Positions 47,840 to 57,423 of a stretch of 64,000 nt of DNA are shown in pieces (position 1 is the first letter of the stretch; the number at the start of each line of letters is the position of its first letter). The DNA lies in the IMG/VR virus record IMGVR_UViG_3300018080_000107; one strand, 5' to 3'. The notes beneath the pieces are model-generated. The model saw only the letters and a list, made by a program, of their open reading frames with translations. It did not search any database and was not told the DNA's origin. The DNA comes from a virus. Position numbers and translations under genes: made by a program.

Positions 47840-47855
47840 TACACTATTAAATACG
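47840..47855 (-). promoter_or_regulatory. Putative late promoter CGTATTTAATAGTGTA
   Basis: Identical to 41925..41940; overlaps the TerL stop codon, upstream of the portal gene. Confidence 0.75.
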
Positions 47856-49655
47856 ACTGAAATCTTCTGACCATCCACCATACGCACCTGGGTCAGCCCA
47901 ATTCCGATATGAATCCTTCTGTGGGTTCTTATAATCAGCCATTTCATGCGCAATAAAATTTGCTATTAAAAGCGCACTATATCTATCTTTACGTGGTTTT
48001 ATCTTACGTTTTTTATCCTCCAAAGAAGGCTGAATATCGAAATGCCTCTTGCCAGTAATAGTTTGAGTTACTGAGATTTGAGCCAACTCTTTTTTGCACG
48101 CCTCGATCTCATTATGGATCTCCTCCATAACATCAATATTCTCCCCTTTGTATTTCTTGCCGGATAAAGTCTGACTTGGAAATAAAATTTCACGATCTTC
48201 AATATTTTTCTGAAGTTGGAAATTAGCATCCTCAATCCACCGTGTTTCAAAATTAATCATATTAAGGATATATTTTCCAGGTCGTGACTTATTATCTTCA
48301 TCAAAACGATAAATGGGTGAGCGTCCGTCCAGCATTTGTGGATCTTGTAAAAAGTCTTCTACCGCCAATCCACCACCACCAAGGTCCATGCCGACCCGAA
48401 CAATATTAAACTTTTCCATCAACTCAAGCATATGGCGAGCATTTTTAGTAAACGGCTCATTAATAGATGTATAACAATAAACCACCTTTCGAGGATTGCC
48501 AAGCTCAACTATTACTATTCCAAATGCGTCACTTGTACGCGCAGGGTCAACCCCCATCACATATTCACGACCAAGAGTGCCATTAGGCTTAACAACAAAT
48601 CCATTCTGACCACTCGATGTTGCACGCATAATATCTTGGTGTTTAAAGAATCCATGAGATGTGTCAGCAAAGATACAATTATATTCCATATTGAACAACA
48701 TTGTACTCATGGTCATCTTGGCATTGGAAATCATATCTCTATCCAACATACCCTCTGGAACAAAGAACCAAGGCAGTGCTATCATCCCATAATCACGATA
48801 ATCAACCCACATATCTCCAAGGTCTTGGCCAAGTTTGTCCGCGACTTCATAGCCATAACCGATAGCTTCGCTCGCAACAATGGTTTCATACTGCTGATAT
48901 AACTTGTGGAAATTGCCACCAGTAAACCCAGCCGTACCGGCGATAACAATCTGGTTGCCCTCTCCAACTTTTCTAACCTTCTTCAGCCCCTCACGCTTTC
49001 TACGTGCAGCCTCTTTAATCTTCGCCATAGGATTAAGCTGTGTGGCTGCGAAACCACGTACAACAACATGCATTGTTTCTGGATCTACCGAATCCACTTC
49101 GTCCACAATAATGTGTGATGCACGTTGACCACGAATACCATCTCCATTACCCATAGGTAGCGCAGTGATTGTACTATCGCCTACCTTGAATATACAATGA
49201 TCAACACTTTTTCTTGGTTTCTCTCTAACACATGCCCTAAGCAAAGGGGCTCGCTTATATATGTTTTCTATTTCAGTGAAAATGTGTTTAGCTTGACGGA
49301 AGGTGGCTGATACGATAACAACCTTACTACCTTGATCAAACAAAGCACGTAAGGTTGCATAAACTGCCAGCGTGAATGTTTTAGAAGCACCACGAGATGC
49401 AAGCAGCAGTGGATATTTTTTAGTCCACAACATATATAGGAATGCTGTCTGATATGCCGCAAGTTCTGTATTGAGAATATATTTACACGCCCAACCTAAA
49501 CTATAATATGACAACCCGGCAATTTCAAAAAATGGTTCTTCAATTTTTGTAGTCCACTCACCTTGCGTAAGCGGATTAATAAGAAGTTCTGGATCAACCT
49601 CATTTTCCCAGTAATAATCTGGATTTATAATTGTACCTTCTGGCATTAGTCCCAA
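47847..49655 (-). CDS. terL: Terminase large subunit
   Basis: Walker A ASRGASKT, IRGQRA + Walker B IIVDE, nuclease GVDPA and KDRYSA. Confidence 0.95.
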   Translation of the reverse strand: MGLMPEGTIINPDYYWENEVDPELLINPLTQGEWTTKIEEPFFEIAGLSYYSLGWACKYILNTELAAYQTAFLYMLWTKKYPLLLASRGASKTFTLAVYATLRALFDQGSKVVIVSATFRQAKHIFTEIENIYKRAPLLRACVREKPRKSVDHCIFKVGDSTITALPMGNGDGIRGQRASHIIVDEVDSVDPETMHVVVRGFAATQLNPMAKIKEAARRKREGLKKVRKVGEGNQIVIAGTAGFTGGNFHKLYQQYETIVASEAIGYGYEVADKLGQDLGDMWVDYRDYGMIALPWFFVPEGMLDRDMISNAKMTMSTMLFNMEYNCIFADTSHGFFKHQDIMRATSSGQNGFVVKPNGTLGREYVMGVDPARTSDAFGIVIVELGNPRKVVYCYTSINEPFTKNARHMLELMEKFNIVRVGMDLGGGGLAVEDFLQDPQMLDGRSPIYRFDEDNKSRPGKYILNMINFETRWIEDANFQLQKNIEDREILFPSQTLSGKKYKGENIDVMEEIHNEIEACKKELAQISVTQTITGKRHFDIQPSLEDKKRKIKPRKDRYSALLIANFIAHEMADYKNPQKDSYRNWADPGAYGGWSEDFSRI

Positions 49656-50980: not shown

Positions 50981-51517
50981 TTACCTCTTTCCACCACCGA
51001 TCAAACTACTCATACAACTTTTGCACTTGCTACCAAATGCCATCATATCCTGTGTTCCAACATCGAACTCTTTGCCGCATTGCGAACACTTTGCTTTTTG
51101 CTGCGGTAGCCTATTAACGCTTGCCTCGATGTCTATTGTGCCATCCTCTGCTCTTTTAACACGAGGATTTTTGGCAATGCCAGTTTCTTCTATTCCTTTG
51201 TCTTCAACAACTGGTTGCTTATCGGCATTCGCTGTCTTTTTGTTCCTCCGACGCCTACGCTTCTTCACTACCGGCTTTGCTTCTTCTTCAGCACTCTCTT
51301 CTTCTTCTGCGACAAAGCCAAGAAACATACTTGTTTTACACTCAGGACAAGCAAACGTCTGAAAAAATGCACCACGTGCCTTAATATCTTCTGGCACATC
51401 TTCCATTTCACTAACGTCAAGTATGGCCAACTTATCAAGGTCAACCTTTTTACCACACTTTAGGCAAACAACCTTTGAAATATACGCATCTTTATACAAC
51501 ATAAATCCTCCTACCAA
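50981..51517 (-). CDS. Zn-ribbon protein
   Basis: CLKC, CPEC, CSQC and CKSC with a basic linker; true start may be 51502. Confidence 0.65.
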   Translation of the reverse strand: MVGGFMLYKDAYISKVVCLKCGKKVDLDKLAILDVSEMEDVPEDIKARGAFFQTFACPECKTSMFLGFVAEEEESAEEEAKPVVKKRRRRRNKKTANADKQPVVEDKGIEETGIAKNPRVKRAEDGTIDIEASVNRLPQQKAKCSQCGKEFDVGTQDMMAFGSKCKSCMSSLIGGGKR

Positions 51518-52164
51518 TCAAGTGTATTATACACTACGTCCTTCACTGCATCAAACAATCTTTCCTCGTCTTCGGGTGATATTCCAGAATTAGCAAGCAT
51601 CATTCTATATGGCACTATCAAACCACTTGGAAGCATGACGCCTATATCATCTATCGCCCGTTCATAATATTCTTCTTGATCAAAAATAAACCCATTGCTC
51701 TGCTGTGTATTCCACGAGAACTCAGGATCACATCTCATATGCGCAATCCCCTCTTTTTTCCTTTTGTTCTCTAGGTAGTCCTTATATCTATCACATTTTT
51801 CTAAATCTTCCCCATGAAGAAAGCATTCACCATTTCTATAAAACACACAGCGAGCGCACACATTTGTTCTACGCAATGTATGACGACGCCTTAAATCTCT
51901 AAGGCAATTGTCAACACATCTTCCAAAAAAATTGAATGCAGAATGTGTTCCCGGCCTGAATTTCGCAATAATCTTCGAGCATTTAAGCCGAATTTCTTGT
52001 GCAACATCATCAATAGCATACACACCAATAGAACCAAATTGTTTGCTTTTAACAGCAGCAATATACTCTACGATTGGCTCTATATCAGAATAAACTAATG
52101 GGCGCTTTGTTGCTATATCTATGATTTGTTTTTCAATGCCGGTGATTTCCGACTTACTCACCAT
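51511..52164 (-). CDS. Phage sigma-like factor (ECF-type region 2, Cys-rich insert, no obvious region 4 HTH)
   Basis: DDVAQEIRLK...KFRPG..SAFNFF.RCVDNCLRDLRRR matches the region 2 pattern DxxQE...F..(W/F)...(A/V)xNxxxDxxRR. Confidence 0.7.
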   Translation of the reverse strand: MVSKSEITGIEKQIIDIATKRPLVYSDIEPIVEYIAAVKSKQFGSIGVYAIDDVAQEIRLKCSKIIAKFRPGTHSAFNFFGRCVDNCLRDLRRRHTLRRTNVCARCVFYRNGECFLHGEDLEKCDRYKDYLENKRKKEGIAHMRCDPEFSWNTQQSNGFIFDQEEYYERAIDDIGVMLPSGLIVPYRMMLANSGISPEDEERLFDAVKDVVYNTLDW

Positions 52165-52333
52165 CTATTGTTCCTATCTGGTTATCAGTAATGATGTCCT
52201 GGATTTCTCCCGCTATCACACCACTTGGTGTCACTTCTCTAAATGCCCTGCTCTTTTTCAAAACAGGGTCTGCAGAGTTGGCCTTAACTGGTTTGTCACC
52301 CCAGTTGATCCTATTTTCTTCTCGATCACTCAT
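52154..52333 (-). CDS. Small hypothetical protein (59 aa)
   Basis: Manual call: GGAGG RBS, MSDREENRINWGDK...TIDGE; fills the gap between genes. Confidence 0.6.
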   Translation of the reverse strand: MSDREENRINWGDKPVKANSADPVLKKSRAFREVTPSGVIAGEIQDIITDNQIGTIDGE

Positions 52334-52655
52334 GTTTTACCTCCCGCAGACACGAACAAAGCTGCAGCAATGGCAATCCACCATACTGCTCCTCATTAGA
52401 CTCAAACAGCCCAACGTAACCCATGCCATAACACTTTCGACAATTGTTCTTGGCACGATACCGCTTAACAGACACACCATCTTTTGCACTTGCATCTGCC
52501 TCCCTAACATGGAAAACACGCCTTGCCCCCATCTCGACATCCTCAATGGGCATAAGAGGCATCTCACCATACCTTTCCACGACCTCCTGAATAAGCTCCT
52601 TCAGGTCTGTCGATTCCTTCTTCTCTTCTACCTTTTCGGCTCTCTGTTCTTCCAT
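52326..52655 (-). CDS. Small Zn-finger protein
   Basis: CRKCYGMG...CSC; GGAGG RBS. Confidence 0.6.
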   Translation of the reverse strand: MEEQRAEKVEEKKESTDLKELIQEVVERYGEMPLMPIEDVEMGARRVFHVREADASAKDGVSVKRYRAKNNCRKCYGMGYVGLFESNEEQYGGLPLLQLCSCLREVKHE

Positions 52656-52664
52656 TACGTCCTC

Positions 52665-55295
52665 CTACACTGAACAAGCACCCCATCCACACGATGGGCA
52701 AGTTTTACACTTTTCTGTTATGGCCAATTCGCTACCACACTCTGGGCAAATCAATTTCTTCTTAGATGCCGTCGCTTCTATTGTGGTATCGTCTTCAATA
52801 AACGTATAAAAATCTTCAACAGCAGACTTAGGTATATAAACACGCTCATCTGTTATCTTAACTTCAATCTCTGTCTTTTCCGAGAACACCTCCATAAACT
52901 TTTTCAACACACCAATATTTCTACTGTTGGACTTAAACTTGATACCACCGTGTTTAGTTTGAATACCACCAACAAGATATAAATGTCTTACAAAATACGG
53001 AGTAACAAACTCCCGCAATTCTCGCTTAGTGGAAATATCAATAACGGAATCATAATCAATTGGAGTATCATACAAATCTTTCAAAAAGTGTGTGTCAAAG
53101 TAATAATAAGTCTTATCCGTCACAATGCTCTCGATGGGGCCACATACAATCCCATGATCTAAAAATTGCTTGCGAACATCATGAGCATAGACCAAATGAT
53201 CGGCAACCTGTCGATATGATGATTGATGGTCAACAGTAGTAAGCTTAGAGTGGCCAACTAATATATTGGCCATTATGATTTCTGTTAATGAACGTGTAAG
53301 CTTTTGCATACTCGCCTGGCGTGCTGTTTCATGCTCTTCTTTGCGAATACCATATCGCTTAAGTTTAGCGAATACCTTTTGTTCTGACACACCAAGAAGA
53401 TCGGCAATCTCTTTTGCTGTTAGTCCCTCTCGACAATATTTCTGGAATAGGAAGTCACGAAGTTCCTCGTGATATTTATCATCTTTTGACCCAACACTTA
53501 GCACACCAGCCTTACTACCTTCACGAAATATAGTGGTGCCCTTACACTTAAGTCTGTGTGCCAATTTGTATGCTCCAGCAACATGATGTACGGTCGCATC
53601 TGGTGGCATATTGATTGTTTTTGAAATACCAGAATCCACATTCTCTTGTGCTGCTGCTTGCATCTTGATATGATCTTCAACCGAAATATCAGCCGCACAC
53701 TTAAACAACCTCCTAATGTCTGCTGGAATTTCTTCTATCTTTTGAATAGACCCAACCTTCTCAAGCTTCTTAATGATTGCATTGATGTCAAGACCTGCAG
53801 CTTCAATACAAGCCTTAAACTTTGGATTCAATTCAATATAGATGTCACCATCATATGTGCGCCTTCGATAGAATACATTGAAATATGGCTCAATGGAATG
53901 ACTTGCCCCAGCTACCATAGCAACACTACCTGTTGGCTGCAATGTTGTATGCCAAAGGTTGCGAATTTTGATTCCCTTCTTTTCCCAAACTGAACCTTTC
54001 CAATTTTCAGGTAGTCCACGTTCTTTCGCCAACTCTATGGACTCCATAATAGCATATTCCTTTACTGATTCTCCGATGTGGCGCAAAAGATCACGTGCCT
54101 CTTCAGAATCATATGGAATGCCCAAATCAATTAGGATGTCGGCAAAACCCATTAGGCCAATGCCAACTCCACGTGTCTTCTTGACACACTCTTCAATCTG
54201 CTTCAGTGGATATGAACTTACATCAATTGCATTTTCTGCAATCCTCACTGCTGTACGCACCATATCCTCAAGTAGAGAATGAAGAAACTCACCACCTTTA
54301 AAACACTTATTAAGATTTACAGCAACCAAATTGCACGCATGATATGGGTGCATATACAATTCACCACACGGATTGGAAGCTTCTATCCTGCCAAGGTGTG
54401 GCATAGTGTTGCCTTCATTTACAGTATCAATAAAACAAACACCCGGATCTCCACTCTTCCAAGCATATTCACACACCATATTAAAAAGTCGCCTCGCCTT
54501 AACGGTTTTTACAACCTTGCCATTTTGGCGCGACACTAAGTTCCAATCAGAATTTTCCTCAACCGCCTTCATAAACCTGTCTGTCAATTTGACAGATAGA
54601 TTAAATTTGGTTAATCTTTGAAGTTTTTCCATCTCCATCTCGGCAAACTTCTTGAGAGTCTTATCTGTAGAACTTAGTACAATCCTCATTAGTCGATTAA
54701 TCTCTTGCAGATTCTGCGACTTTACAGTAATAAATTCTTCGATGTCTGGATGATCCATATCCATAAACGCAATCGACGCTGCACGCCTAACACCACCTTG
54801 CGTCACAACGTTTGAGGAGGCGTCAAACACCTCCAAAAAGGATAGTGGCCCAGAGGACTTACCCTTAGACGTTTTGACGATAGAGCCCTTCTCACGCAGC
54901 ACAGAGATATCAATACCAATACCTCCACCAGCTTGATAGACCCTGGCACAATTACCCATAGTATCATATATACCATCTATAGAATCTGCAAGTGGTAAAA
55001 CGAAACATGAAAAAAGCCCACCAGGAGTATCGACTGATGGATCACGAGAATTAAACAAATATGGCGATGCTGGCATAACATTAAGATTCAGTAGGTGCTC
55101 CAATACCCTATTATACCAATATTCTCTTGCTTCTGGAGTTCTTTCGGCATAAGTGACACATTTCGCCACTCTTTCAAACATTTGTCTTGGTGTTTCTACT
55201 ACTTTTCCCTCATTATTTTTCAACAGATAGCGCGATTCAACTAGACGCCTGCTGTTCTCGGTCAAATAAGGCCGACGATCCATAATATCTCCCAA
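52665..55295 (-). CDS. nrdJ: Class II (B12-dependent) ribonucleotide reductase with an inserted HTH/LAGLIDADG-like domain
   Basis: SCFV, GGGIG, QGGVRRAA, NPCGE, CNL, QPTGS, DSGISKTIN, KGTTIFR; C-terminal CPECG..CxxCxxCG..C tail; no beta-subunit gene nearby. Start may be the ATG at 55283. Confidence 0.9.
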   Translation of the reverse strand: MGDIMDRRPYLTENSRRLVESRYLLKNNEGKVVETPRQMFERVAKCVTYAERTPEAREYWYNRVLEHLLNLNVMPASPYLFNSRDPSVDTPGGLFSCFVLPLADSIDGIYDTMGNCARVYQAGGGIGIDISVLREKGSIVKTSKGKSSGPLSFLEVFDASSNVVTQGGVRRAASIAFMDMDHPDIEEFITVKSQNLQEINRLMRIVLSSTDKTLKKFAEMEMEKLQRLTKFNLSVKLTDRFMKAVEENSDWNLVSRQNGKVVKTVKARRLFNMVCEYAWKSGDPGVCFIDTVNEGNTMPHLGRIEASNPCGELYMHPYHACNLVAVNLNKCFKGGEFLHSLLEDMVRTAVRIAENAIDVSSYPLKQIEECVKKTRGVGIGLMGFADILIDLGIPYDSEEARDLLRHIGESVKEYAIMESIELAKERGLPENWKGSVWEKKGIKIRNLWHTTLQPTGSVAMVAGASHSIEPYFNVFYRRRTYDGDIYIELNPKFKACIEAAGLDINAIIKKLEKVGSIQKIEEIPADIRRLFKCAADISVEDHIKMQAAAQENVDSGISKTINMPPDATVHHVAGAYKLAHRLKCKGTTIFREGSKAGVLSVGSKDDKYHEELRDFLFQKYCREGLTAKEIADLLGVSEQKVFAKLKRYGIRKEEHETARQASMQKLTRSLTEIIMANILVGHSKLTTVDHQSSYRQVADHLVYAHDVRKQFLDHGIVCGPIESIVTDKTYYYFDTHFLKDLYDTPIDYDSVIDISTKRELREFVTPYFVRHLYLVGGIQTKHGGIKFKSNSRNIGVLKKFMEVFSEKTEIEVKITDERVYIPKSAVEDFYTFIEDDTTIEATASKKKLICPECGSELAITEKCKTCPSCGWGACSV

Positions 55296-55352
55296 CGCTC
55301 TTTATATTTGAAGTCGAATTGACATAAATGCCTACCACGAATATACTTATAC

Positions 55353-55381
55353 AAAAAAACCACCATTAAAAGCATAATGGT
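55353..55381 (-). terminator. Weak terminator-like hairpin between the MTase and nrdJ
   Basis: ACCATTA/TAATGGT stem followed by GG and a T run. Confidence 0.4.
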
Positions 55382-55405
55382 AGCATATGTAATAGTATTA
55401 TACGT

Positions 55406-56428
55406 CTATAGGTCTTTTGTTCCGACTGAAACTGTATATCTAAGTGGAGTATACTCCGCAACAAACAAATCGGTTGCCACGCTGACATCTTTTATCATTT
55501 GCAACTGGATATCCTTCTCTTGAGGACTCATACAGGCAAAATCATAATTAACACAACGATGTTTCATCTCTCTAGTTTGTGTGAACTTATAATGGTCGTC
55601 CAACCTCCTGTGATTCATCGAATTTCCTAAATCTTGCGCATCACGCATGTTGTCAGAAATAATATCAAAACACCCGTGCCGAATTTCACATCCATAACTA
55701 TTCCGCCCGTTAATAAGCGCCGCCTTCATTGTTGTGCCAGCACCAAGAAACGGATCAAGTACCAAATCGCCTTGCATTGAAAACATATTAATCAATCTAT
55801 GTGGAATTTCAAGTGGAAAGGCGGCAGTTCGTATTCCCTTTTTATTCTGTCTAACACCTGTGACATCCCACAAATCAGAAAACCACTTATTACGCTCTTC
55901 CCAAAAATACGCACTACGTCTACGTATCTTCTTTTCTCTTTCAGAATGCTTCCTTGGATTACCCTTTCTAAAGATTAGGATGTGTTCATGTTCAAGCGTC
56001 ATATATGCGCCACAAGGCAACATCCCAGATCCCATAAATTTTGTAGGTGAGTTTGTAGGCTTTCTCCAAATAACTCCTGGCAACAATGTCATACCCATAG
56101 AAGTCAAATACTCTATAATCTTAGAGTGATTGGGATATAGTGCAAAATGTCCCTCAAGCGTCCTTACTGCATCTCCTATATTGATGCACATAAAGCCACC
56201 TTTTCTAAGAACATGGACGCACTGATGTAAAACATTGCGCAATTGCATATGTTGATGATTATACACGCCCCAAGGATCGTGCTTAAAGTCGCCACCCAGC
56301 ATTTCATCCCACATCTTGACCATAGGATATGGAGGCGATGTTACAATCAAATCCACTGTACCAGAAGCATGACTACTCAATACATCCCTTGCATCTTCCC
56401 TGTATACTCTATGTGATGTCCAAAGCAT
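55406..56428 (-). CDS. DNA methyltransferase, beta class (N4-C/N6-A)
   Basis: TSPPY motif IV precedes DPFLGAGTT motif I. Confidence 0.92.
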   Translation of the reverse strand: MLWTSHRVYREDARDVLSSHASGTVDLIVTSPPYPMVKMWDEMLGGDFKHDPWGVYNHQHMQLRNVLHQCVHVLRKGGFMCINIGDAVRTLEGHFALYPNHSKIIEYLTSMGMTLLPGVIWRKPTNSPTKFMGSGMLPCGAYMTLEHEHILIFRKGNPRKHSEREKKIRRRSAYFWEERNKWFSDLWDVTGVRQNKKGIRTAAFPLEIPHRLINMFSMQGDLVLDPFLGAGTTMKAALINGRNSYGCEIRHGCFDIISDNMRDAQDLGNSMNHRRLDDHYKFTQTREMKHRCVNYDFACMSPQEKDIQLQMIKDVSVATDLFVAEYTPLRYTVSVGTKDL

Positions 56429-57423
56429 TATCTAATCGACCTTTTTGAAACTCTATTTAGCCAAAATTTACACATCCTATCAACCATACCCTGAAATGAC
56501 ACTTCTCTTTCCCAACCAAGTATTGACAAAGCCTTAGTCGAATTACCAAGAAGATAATTTACATCCGATGGGCGAACAAATTGTTGATCAATAACAACGT
56601 GCTTTTCATAATCAAGTCCAAAAAATCCAAACGCCCGATCACACAAATCTCTAATAGAATGTGCCTCACCAGTAGACAGCACAAAATCATCCGGCTTATC
56701 ATGCTGTAACATTAAGTGCATCCCACGTACATAATCTGGCGCATAACCCCAATCACGCCTTGCCTCAAGATTGCCGAGAGCCAATTCATGCCGCATCCCC
56801 AAATAAACCTCAACGGCACCTCTGCATATTTTCGCAGTTACAAACTCTTCTCCACGCAACTCACTTTCATGATTAAAAAGAAGTCCCACACTTCCAAAAA
56901 TCCCATATGCTTCTCTGTAATTCTGCACCACATGATGTGCAAATGTTTTAGCACACCCATATGGCGACCTTGGATGGAATGGAGTCCGCTCGTCCATTGG
57001 TTTGCCAGCAGGCCATTCATCATATCCAAACTGTTCTGAAGATCCGGCTTGGTACACCTTTGTCTCTGGGCTATGAACACGAATGGCTTCTACAAGATTA
57101 AGTACACCCATTCCAGTCACATCACATGTAGCAATCGGACTGTTGAATGACTCTCCAACAAAACTTTGCGCTCCAAGATTATAACATTCATCTGGATGAT
57201 ACTTAGACATTAGCGTACCAAGTGAAGCATGATCTATTAAATCGCCGCTTACCAAATGAAAATTTGGATTGCCGATAGCCCCAACATGTCTTAGTCGCCA
57301 CAACTTGTCTGTAGCACCACGCCGAATCATTCCATATACTTCATAACCCAATTCAAGCAAATGCTTAGAAAGCCATGCTCCATCTTGCCCATTGCAGCCA
57401 GTTATCAATGCTGTTTTAGACAT
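56428..57423 (-). CDS. gmd: GDP-mannose 4,6-dehydratase
   Basis: ALITGCNGQDG, YNLGAQSFV, YQAGSSE, PRSPYGCAK, LFNHES, RDWGYA; start taken at MSKTALITG. Confidence 0.95.
   Translation of the reverse strand: MSKTALITGCNGQDGAWLSKHLLELGYEVYGMIRRGATDKLWRLRHVGAIGNPNFHLVSGDLIDHASLGTLMSKYHPDECYNLGAQSFVGESFNSPIATCDVTGMGVLNLVEAIRVHSPETKVYQAGSSEQFGYDEWPAGKPMDERTPFHPRSPYGCAKTFAHHVVQNYREAYGIFGSVGLLFNHESELRGEEFVTAKICRGAVEVYLGMRHELALGNLEARRDWGYAPDYVRGMHLMLQHDKPDDFVLSTGEAHSIRDLCDRAFGFFGLDYEKHVVIDQQFVRPSDVNYLLGNSTKALSILGWEREVSFQGMVDRMCKFWLNRVSKRSIR

Follow-up and report, generated by a model that had tools for sequence, protein, structure and literature searches.

A helix-turn-helix and LAGLIDADG module without its two catalytic acids at the place of the IscU-like domain in a phage class II ribonucleotide reductase

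Introduction

Homing endonucleases are usually transient parasites of ribonucleotide reductase (RNR) genes and are removed by splicing. The long C terminus of the class II RNR NrdJ has been described as an IscU-like domain and a zinc finger only (PMC9669993, PMC5704485). Neither of these two papers mentions a LAGLIDADG form of NrdJ, and a full-text literature search returned none. WhiA recognizes specific DNA through its helix-turn-helix (HTH), and its dead endonuclease domain is used for contacts with proteins and links it to WhiB (PMC10243135, PMC3240954). Here, we describe an nrdJ gene from a 64-kb stretch (the window) of the virus record IMGVR_UViG_3300018080_000107, which is 95.9 kb long and estimated to be 59% complete. 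Its product carries an HTH and a two-lobed LAGLIDADG domain between the catalytic barrel and the cysteine tail. We put a probability of roughly 60% on this insert being a selected, noncatalytic, WhiA-like scaffold that replaces the IscU-like body of the redox arm.

Results

The nrdJ gene occupies the minus strand of the window and is laid out, from the whole gene to its last domain, as follows.

52665..55295, minus strand: nrdJ open reading frame (ORF), 876 amino acids from a TTG at 55295, stop codon at 52665-52667
53505..55295, minus strand: catalytic core, residues 1-597, an all-alpha domain plus a ten-stranded barrel
53487..53504, minus strand: linker 1, residues 598-603, predicted local distance difference test (pLDDT) below 50; 46% identity over residues 598-611
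53310..53486, minus strand: HTH module, residues 604-662, four helices, of which the recognition helix hardly varies
53061..53294, minus strand: LAGLIDADG lobe 1, residues 668-745, alpha-beta-beta-alpha-beta-beta-alpha, with motif 1 at 53247-53279
52788..53027, minus strand: LAGLIDADG lobe 2, residues 757-836, with motif 2 at 52965-52994
52752..52787, minus strand: linker 2, residues 837-848, 22% identity, pLDDT below 50 at residues 837-846
52668..52751, minus strand: six-cysteine zinc-finger redox tail, residues 849-876, spaced C-x2-C-x9-C-x2-C-x2-C-x4-C

An ATG at 55283 is the likely real start and gives an 872-residue protein, the form found in the database (P0002; the other P numbers below denote related proteins and L numbers related loci). 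Pfam placed Ribonuc_red_lgN (PF00317) at residues 11 to 86 (7e-18) and the barrel (PF02867) from residue 96 (3e-126). The NCBIfam model TIGR02504 (NrdJ_Z) scored 569 bits over residues 17 to 597, against a cut-off of 400 bits. The NxCxE loop (N308, C310, and E312) and the redox pair C97/C321 were invariant in 26 sequences. By these sequence hallmarks, the product is a class II, B12-dependent RNR. An earlier sequence-only reading of the window had already called it class II, and the Pfam domains and the NrdJ equivalog score agree.

The insert comprises ~240 residues (~600 to 840) between the end of the barrel and the zinc-finger tail. That same reading had described, at 52790..53470, an HTH followed by a two-motif LAGLIDADG_2-like region. 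All of the peptides it quoted lie in that interval, which corresponds to residues ~609 to 835, and both parts of the description were confirmed by structure prediction, structural alignment, profile searches, and domain matches in remote relatives. Searches of Pfam, PHROGs, and PDB sequences with the insert alone gave no LAGLIDADG match, including none to LAGLIDADG_2 (PF03161), and the HTH gave sub-threshold Pfam matches (E of 3e-4 to 1e-2) and similarly weak HTH matches in PHROGs. An AlphaFold2 (AF2) model of the insert, built on a 20-row alignment, had a mean pLDDT of 88.3 and showed four helices, followed by two alpha-beta-beta-alpha-beta-beta-alpha units. Foldseek ranked I-SceI first (E of 6e-8), then I-WcaI, I-DmoI, WhiA, PI-PfuI, and the bI3 maturase. 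VIA-align superposed the model on I-SceI with a Z score of 16.2 and a root mean square deviation of 3.4 A, aligning 189 of the 223 I-SceI residues. A profile of the insert and its relatives, searched against the PDB, matched I-WcaI (6e-13) and I-SceI (6e-12) with both motifs in register.

Relatives of the insert were collected by an exhaustive phmmer search. Seven proteins matched the whole insert; of the five with domain data, four were NrdJs and one was an intein-bearing fragment. More than 100 others matched residues ~14 to 60 of the insert only, as 2 to 7 copies each, with E values down to 1e-15. The HTH of the insert is thus one copy of a repeat that is arrayed in tandem in free-standing relatives. 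In P0015 and P0016, the remotest NrdJ relatives (inserts 35 to 37% identical), PF03161 scored 36.8 and 31.5 bits (cut-off, 25 bits), and the match falls at the homologous place. The free-standing proteins P0070, P0085, P0089, and P0121 have several HTH matches plus LAGLIDADG_2 at E values of 1e-17 to 2e-28, and their alignment to the insert spans the last HTH repeat and runs into the LAGLIDADG domain. Taken together, these comparisons show the insert to be an I-SceI/LAGLIDADG_2-type module of one HTH repeat and a monomeric, two-lobed LAGLIDADG domain.

Among the repeat-bearing proteins (P0017 to P0159), the HTH stretch of the insert matches at 2 to 7 places, and the few that we scanned show several HTH matches. 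Some end in an intact LAGLIDADG_2 domain. The family resembles homing endonucleases equipped with modular arrays of HTHs. We found no description of this multi-HTH family in the literature searched. The lone PDB sequence match of the insert was 8vd6, a "CAP repeat" cited in a protein-design paper, which we treated as uninformative.

We then compared the position of the module with the C termini of other NrdJs. The nearest relatives without the insert are Archaeoglobaceae-type NrdJs of ~750 amino acids (43% identity), which carry at this position a TSCPD domain, followed by the same six-cysteine finger. The cysteine spacing of the finger is identical in the window protein and these relatives with TSCPD, and an alignment of nine close clade members shows no change at any of the six cysteines. 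In the window NrdJ, TSCPD (PF12637) gave no match at E<=1. The sequence-only reading had allowed for the insert turning out to be an ordinary NrdJ C-terminal domain; the missing PF12637 match and the HTH plus LAGLIDADG fold speak otherwise. As judged from these alignments, the module takes precisely the position that the IscU-like/TSCPD half of the Cys-rich C-terminal domain has in ordinary NrdJs, a point that the earlier reading did not make.

In the full-length AF2 model, the domains are confident, disorder is predicted at residues 592 to 608 and 837 to 846 (pLDDT below 50), and the predicted template modeling score (pTM) is 0.67. On this model, the module resembles a bead strung between barrel and redox finger.

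RNR genes are classic hosts of inteins and introns, and P0010, P0011, P0014, and P0015 bear inteins elsewhere in the protein, in the barrel. The insert might therefore be removed as a group I or II intron, an intein, or a bacterial intein-like (BIL) domain, leaving an ordinary short-tailed NrdJ as the mature enzyme. Searches for Intein_splicing and Hint domains (PF14890, Hint_2, and PT-HINT) gave no match in the window NrdJ at E<=1, while P0010 and P0015 do match. The conserved C/S/T...HN-C/S/T junction is absent, and the CPxCG tail is preceded by I, V, L, S, T, or K but never by N. Rfam returned nothing at E<=1 on either strand of 51500..56500, and over the full 64 kb it gave no group I or II intron at gathering score. 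Across the insert, the frame stays open without stops, conservation at the protein level runs along its entire length, and the HTH and LAGLIDADG domains account for its fold without remainder. We give removal by splicing next to no credence, in agreement with the earlier claim of an intact frame without intein or intron. With no Hint domain and no intron signal, the insert should therefore stay in the mature enzyme of ~100 kDa.

An RNA maturase role for the module was also considered and rejected; as no group I or II intron was found in the window, there is no obvious RNA substrate. The barrel inteins themselves occur, one or two per protein, in P0010 (L001:3232-6825), P0011, P0014, P0015, and L005:3-4637, which are 1,197 to 1,609 amino acids long. 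They are of the Intein_splicing type with LAGLIDADG_3, so that two kinds of endonuclease domain occur in one gene family; the window copy has no intein.

To follow the descent of the insert, we built a tree from the barrel columns only (residues 1 to 597) that included the 15 insert-bearing sequences. A single branch, with a Shimodaira-Hasegawa-like approximate likelihood ratio (SH-aLRT) support of 100, separated all 15 from the other sequences. Within this clade, mean pairwise identity was 57% for the barrel, 64% for the HTH, 63% for lobe 1, 49% for lobe 2, 60% for the zinc finger, and 22 to 46% for the linkers. Identities of barrel and insert were correlated (r of 0.68; Mantel test, 0/5000). 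The proportion of synonymous differences (pS) was 0.62 to 1.0, i.e., saturated, and that of nonsynonymous differences (pN) in the insert was 0.19 to 0.34, the same range as in the barrel. The dN/dS ratios, 0.06 to 0.3 where computable, are unreliable because nearly every pair is saturated at synonymous sites. This pattern points to one acquisition, vertical co-inheritance with the barrel, and purifying selection, and it supports the domesticated homing endonuclease that the sequence-only reading had proposed.

A neutral, slowly decaying, functionless remnant, tolerated in a flexible linker, would also be inherited in place. The C-terminal arm of NrdJ does vary in length and tolerates insertions (PMC9669993), and the flanking linkers are disordered. 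However, the insert is at least as conserved as the catalytic barrel at a distance where synonymous sites are saturated, and none of the 15 diverged members has a frameshift, stop, or deletion in it. We consider a functionless remnant very unlikely.

The catalytic positions of the LAGLIDADG domain were read from the alignment with I-SceI. The position of I-SceI D44 is H682 (53250-53252) in motif 1 of the window protein (LVGHS), and that of D145 is G776 (52968-52970) in motif 2 (LVGG); the replacement of the acidic residues had been noticed in the earlier reading. Other clade members have N, T, or P/S at the catalytic position of motif 1 and G in motif 2. P0015 and P0016 have T in motif 1 and keep a Glu in motif 2. 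Both acids are lost in all 14 main-clade members, with replacements that differ between subclades, and the motif variants follow the barrel subclades. The free-standing relatives retain GDG in motif 1 and DG in motif 2, matching D44 and D145 of I-SceI. Because both metal-binding acids are lost, no DNA cutting is expected, and, on sequence grounds, the module is almost certainly not a nuclease.

Phage nrd loci are nevertheless homing hot spots. An HNH-AP2 endonuclease gene lies directly upstream of nrdJ in L002, and P0015 and P0016 retain the Glu in motif 2. The module could then be a still active, mobile homing endonuclease that uses substitutes such as His682 and spreads between phage nrdJ alleles. 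Against this stand the loss of both acidic positions throughout the main clade, replaced differently by subclade, and the lack of closely related free-standing or differently placed copies. A search of the 95.9-kb record turned up no further LAGLIDADG_2 copy. The single-branch distribution and the codivergence with the barrel also argue against present mobility, and we regard an active endonuclease as highly improbable.

The genes around nrdJ are those of a phage. Besides nrdJ, the window has genes for a large terminase (47847..49655), a portal protein, tail-fiber-like proteins, a DNA methylase, RNase H, and two RNA ligases. The genome is that of a phage, which the sequence-only reading had not stated. 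Two further IMG/VR loci, L001 and L002, are syntenic (GDP-mannose dehydratase ... nrdJ ... ERCC4 nuclease, terminase). Relatives in viral contigs were recovered solely by alignment-based scans; a single-sequence scan of the viral contigs found none, and tblastn against GenBank phages gave no match. Across 185,579 species genomes, the single match was a 74-kb contig (L010; QNCM01000003.1) of the Candidatus Makaraimicrobium thalassicum (Omnitrophota) metagenome-assembled genome (MAG). It has the same terminase and nrdJ synteny as L001. Since it shares the terminase, L010 is therefore a phage contig, and it was either misbinned or is a hint at the host.

The slot directly upstream of nrdJ varies among the syntenic phages. 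It holds an N6/N4 DNA methylase gene in the window (55406-56428, minus strand), an ORF resembling HNH plus AP2 homing endonucleases in L002 (3531-4184, plus strand), and an unannotated 334-amino-acid ORF in L001 (2256-3260, plus strand). The nrdJ neighborhood looks like a hot spot for mobile genes. Downstream of nrdJ, a 109-amino-acid ORF with cysteine pairs (52326-52655, minus strand) lies in a gap of ~500 bp where the GC content rises to 0.48; the corresponding gap is 250 to 440 bp in related phages. Between nrdJ and the terminase is a 178-amino-acid ORF (50981-51517, minus strand) with weak CpXC and HypA-like zinc-ribbon matches.

Discussion

We propose that the dead LAGLIDADG body would act as a rigid, selected scaffold held on two flexible linkers, as in WhiA. 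In the cysteine-rich arm, the scaffold would be the folded body in place of the IscU-like domain and would present the cysteine pair of the zinc finger to the active site. Its invariant beta-saddle surface may mediate contacts with subunits or partners. The single retained HTH, with its invariant recognition helix, would then be the sole element likely to touch nucleic acid, if any does.

The charge of the LAGLIDADG body bears on this proposal. Its net charge, a crude proxy, is -5 in the window protein and -8 to +6 across the clade, compared with +5 to +10 in the free-standing P0070, P0085, and P0089. The body thus seems to have lost the positive charge of its free-standing relatives, which favors a scaffold over saddle-type DNA binding. 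Several points weigh against the scaffold, however. The bodies of P0010 and P0013 are basic, and that of the free-standing P0121 is neutral. Polar residues that do not vary on the beta-hairpins and in the recognition helix would fit a conserved DNA or RNA target just as well. The replacement of the IscU-like half was read from position in the nearest outgroups, and no intermediate form was found.

A tentative alternative, which we think possible but doubtful, is that the whole module is a sequence-specific DNA-binding device. With it, NrdJ would repress its own operon, as a trigger enzyme, or tether deoxynucleoside triphosphate (dNTP) synthesis to replicating phage DNA. The proteins related to the module all bind DNA, and enzyme-repressor fusions and regulators derived from homing endonucleases, e.g., WhiA, are known (PMC3240954). 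Almost no variation is seen in the recognition helix and the saddle hairpins, yet the same positions vary among the free-standing relatives, and most members have a neutral to basic HTH segment. Apart from the missing positive charge, DNA binding is disfavored by the single HTH repeat that was kept, as opposed to the 2 to 7 matched stretches in free-standing proteins, and by the DNA upstream of the gene. The sequence-only reading had pointed to 55296..55405 as an operator, but this region is not conserved. In L001 and L002 it has no counterpart, as nrdJ there overlaps the upstream ORF with no intergenic gap. In the window, this gap between the methylase gene and nrdJ holds a terminator-like hairpin followed by a T-run (55359-55384, minus strand) and no minus-strand promoter match.

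In the form of this alternative that reaches furthest, the phage RNR would be a sequence-specific DNA-binding enzyme, with the invariant HTH, possibly together with the saddle, docking NrdJ on defined phage DNA sites. We consider this, too, unlikely. Docking would bring dNTP synthesis to the replication fork or allow the nucleotide-loaded state of the enzyme to control transcription, and DNA binding as such would tie dNTP synthesis physically and directly to DNA. The enzyme would then be the first RNR to contain a DNA-binding domain of its own, and a homing endonuclease would have been domesticated in the WhiA manner a second time, independently.

A homing endonuclease has here become fixed as a conserved, nonspliced enzyme domain in a whole clade of large sediment phages. 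A domain of a selfish gene was recruited into an essential enzyme and conserved there, a case that has apparently not been described. It would be a second example, besides WhiA, of a LAGLIDADG scaffold being reused after catalysis was lost. It also provides a natural domain swap that bears on what the C-terminal body of NrdJ must do, the role of the IscU-like half itself being unclear.

Among known systems, I-SceI and I-WcaI (PF03161) share the two-lobed fold of the module (Z of 15 to 16) and the register of its motifs. They are intron encoded or free-standing, whereas the window module is internal to an enzyme, has H682 and G776 in place of the Asp residues, has an acidic body, and is preceded by an HTH. 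The nearest sequence relatives outside NrdJ, P0070, P0085, P0089, and P0121, differ in keeping GDG and DG, in carrying several HTH repeats, in being mostly basic, and in having no enzyme fusion. The inteins and homing endonuclease genes of RNRs, including those in P0010 and P0015, likewise put an endonuclease domain within a phage RNR gene. The window insert differs from these in lacking a Hint domain, and its gene is unsplit and unspliced. In addition, the intein endonuclease of P0010 and P0015 is the intein-typical LAGLIDADG_3, while the window insert is LAGLIDADG_2.

The likeness to WhiA lies in the pairing of a nuclease-dead LAGLIDADG domain with an HTH in a domesticated homing endonuclease, with a structural match at a Z score of 12.6. 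This likeness is at the level of the fold only, as the WhiA Pfam models gave no match to the window NrdJ. The domain order is reversed, with the HTH first in the window NrdJ, and the module is embedded in an enzyme and has an independent origin. To the Cys-rich C-terminal domain of other NrdJs, the likeness is in the position after the barrel, the spacing of the six-cysteine finger, and the beads-on-a-string layout; the difference is that the IscU-like/TSCPD half is missing, with the HTH and LAGLIDADG domains in its stead. The window NrdJ is thus a combination of two known kinds, the domesticated LAGLIDADG proteins and the NrdJ C-terminal domains.

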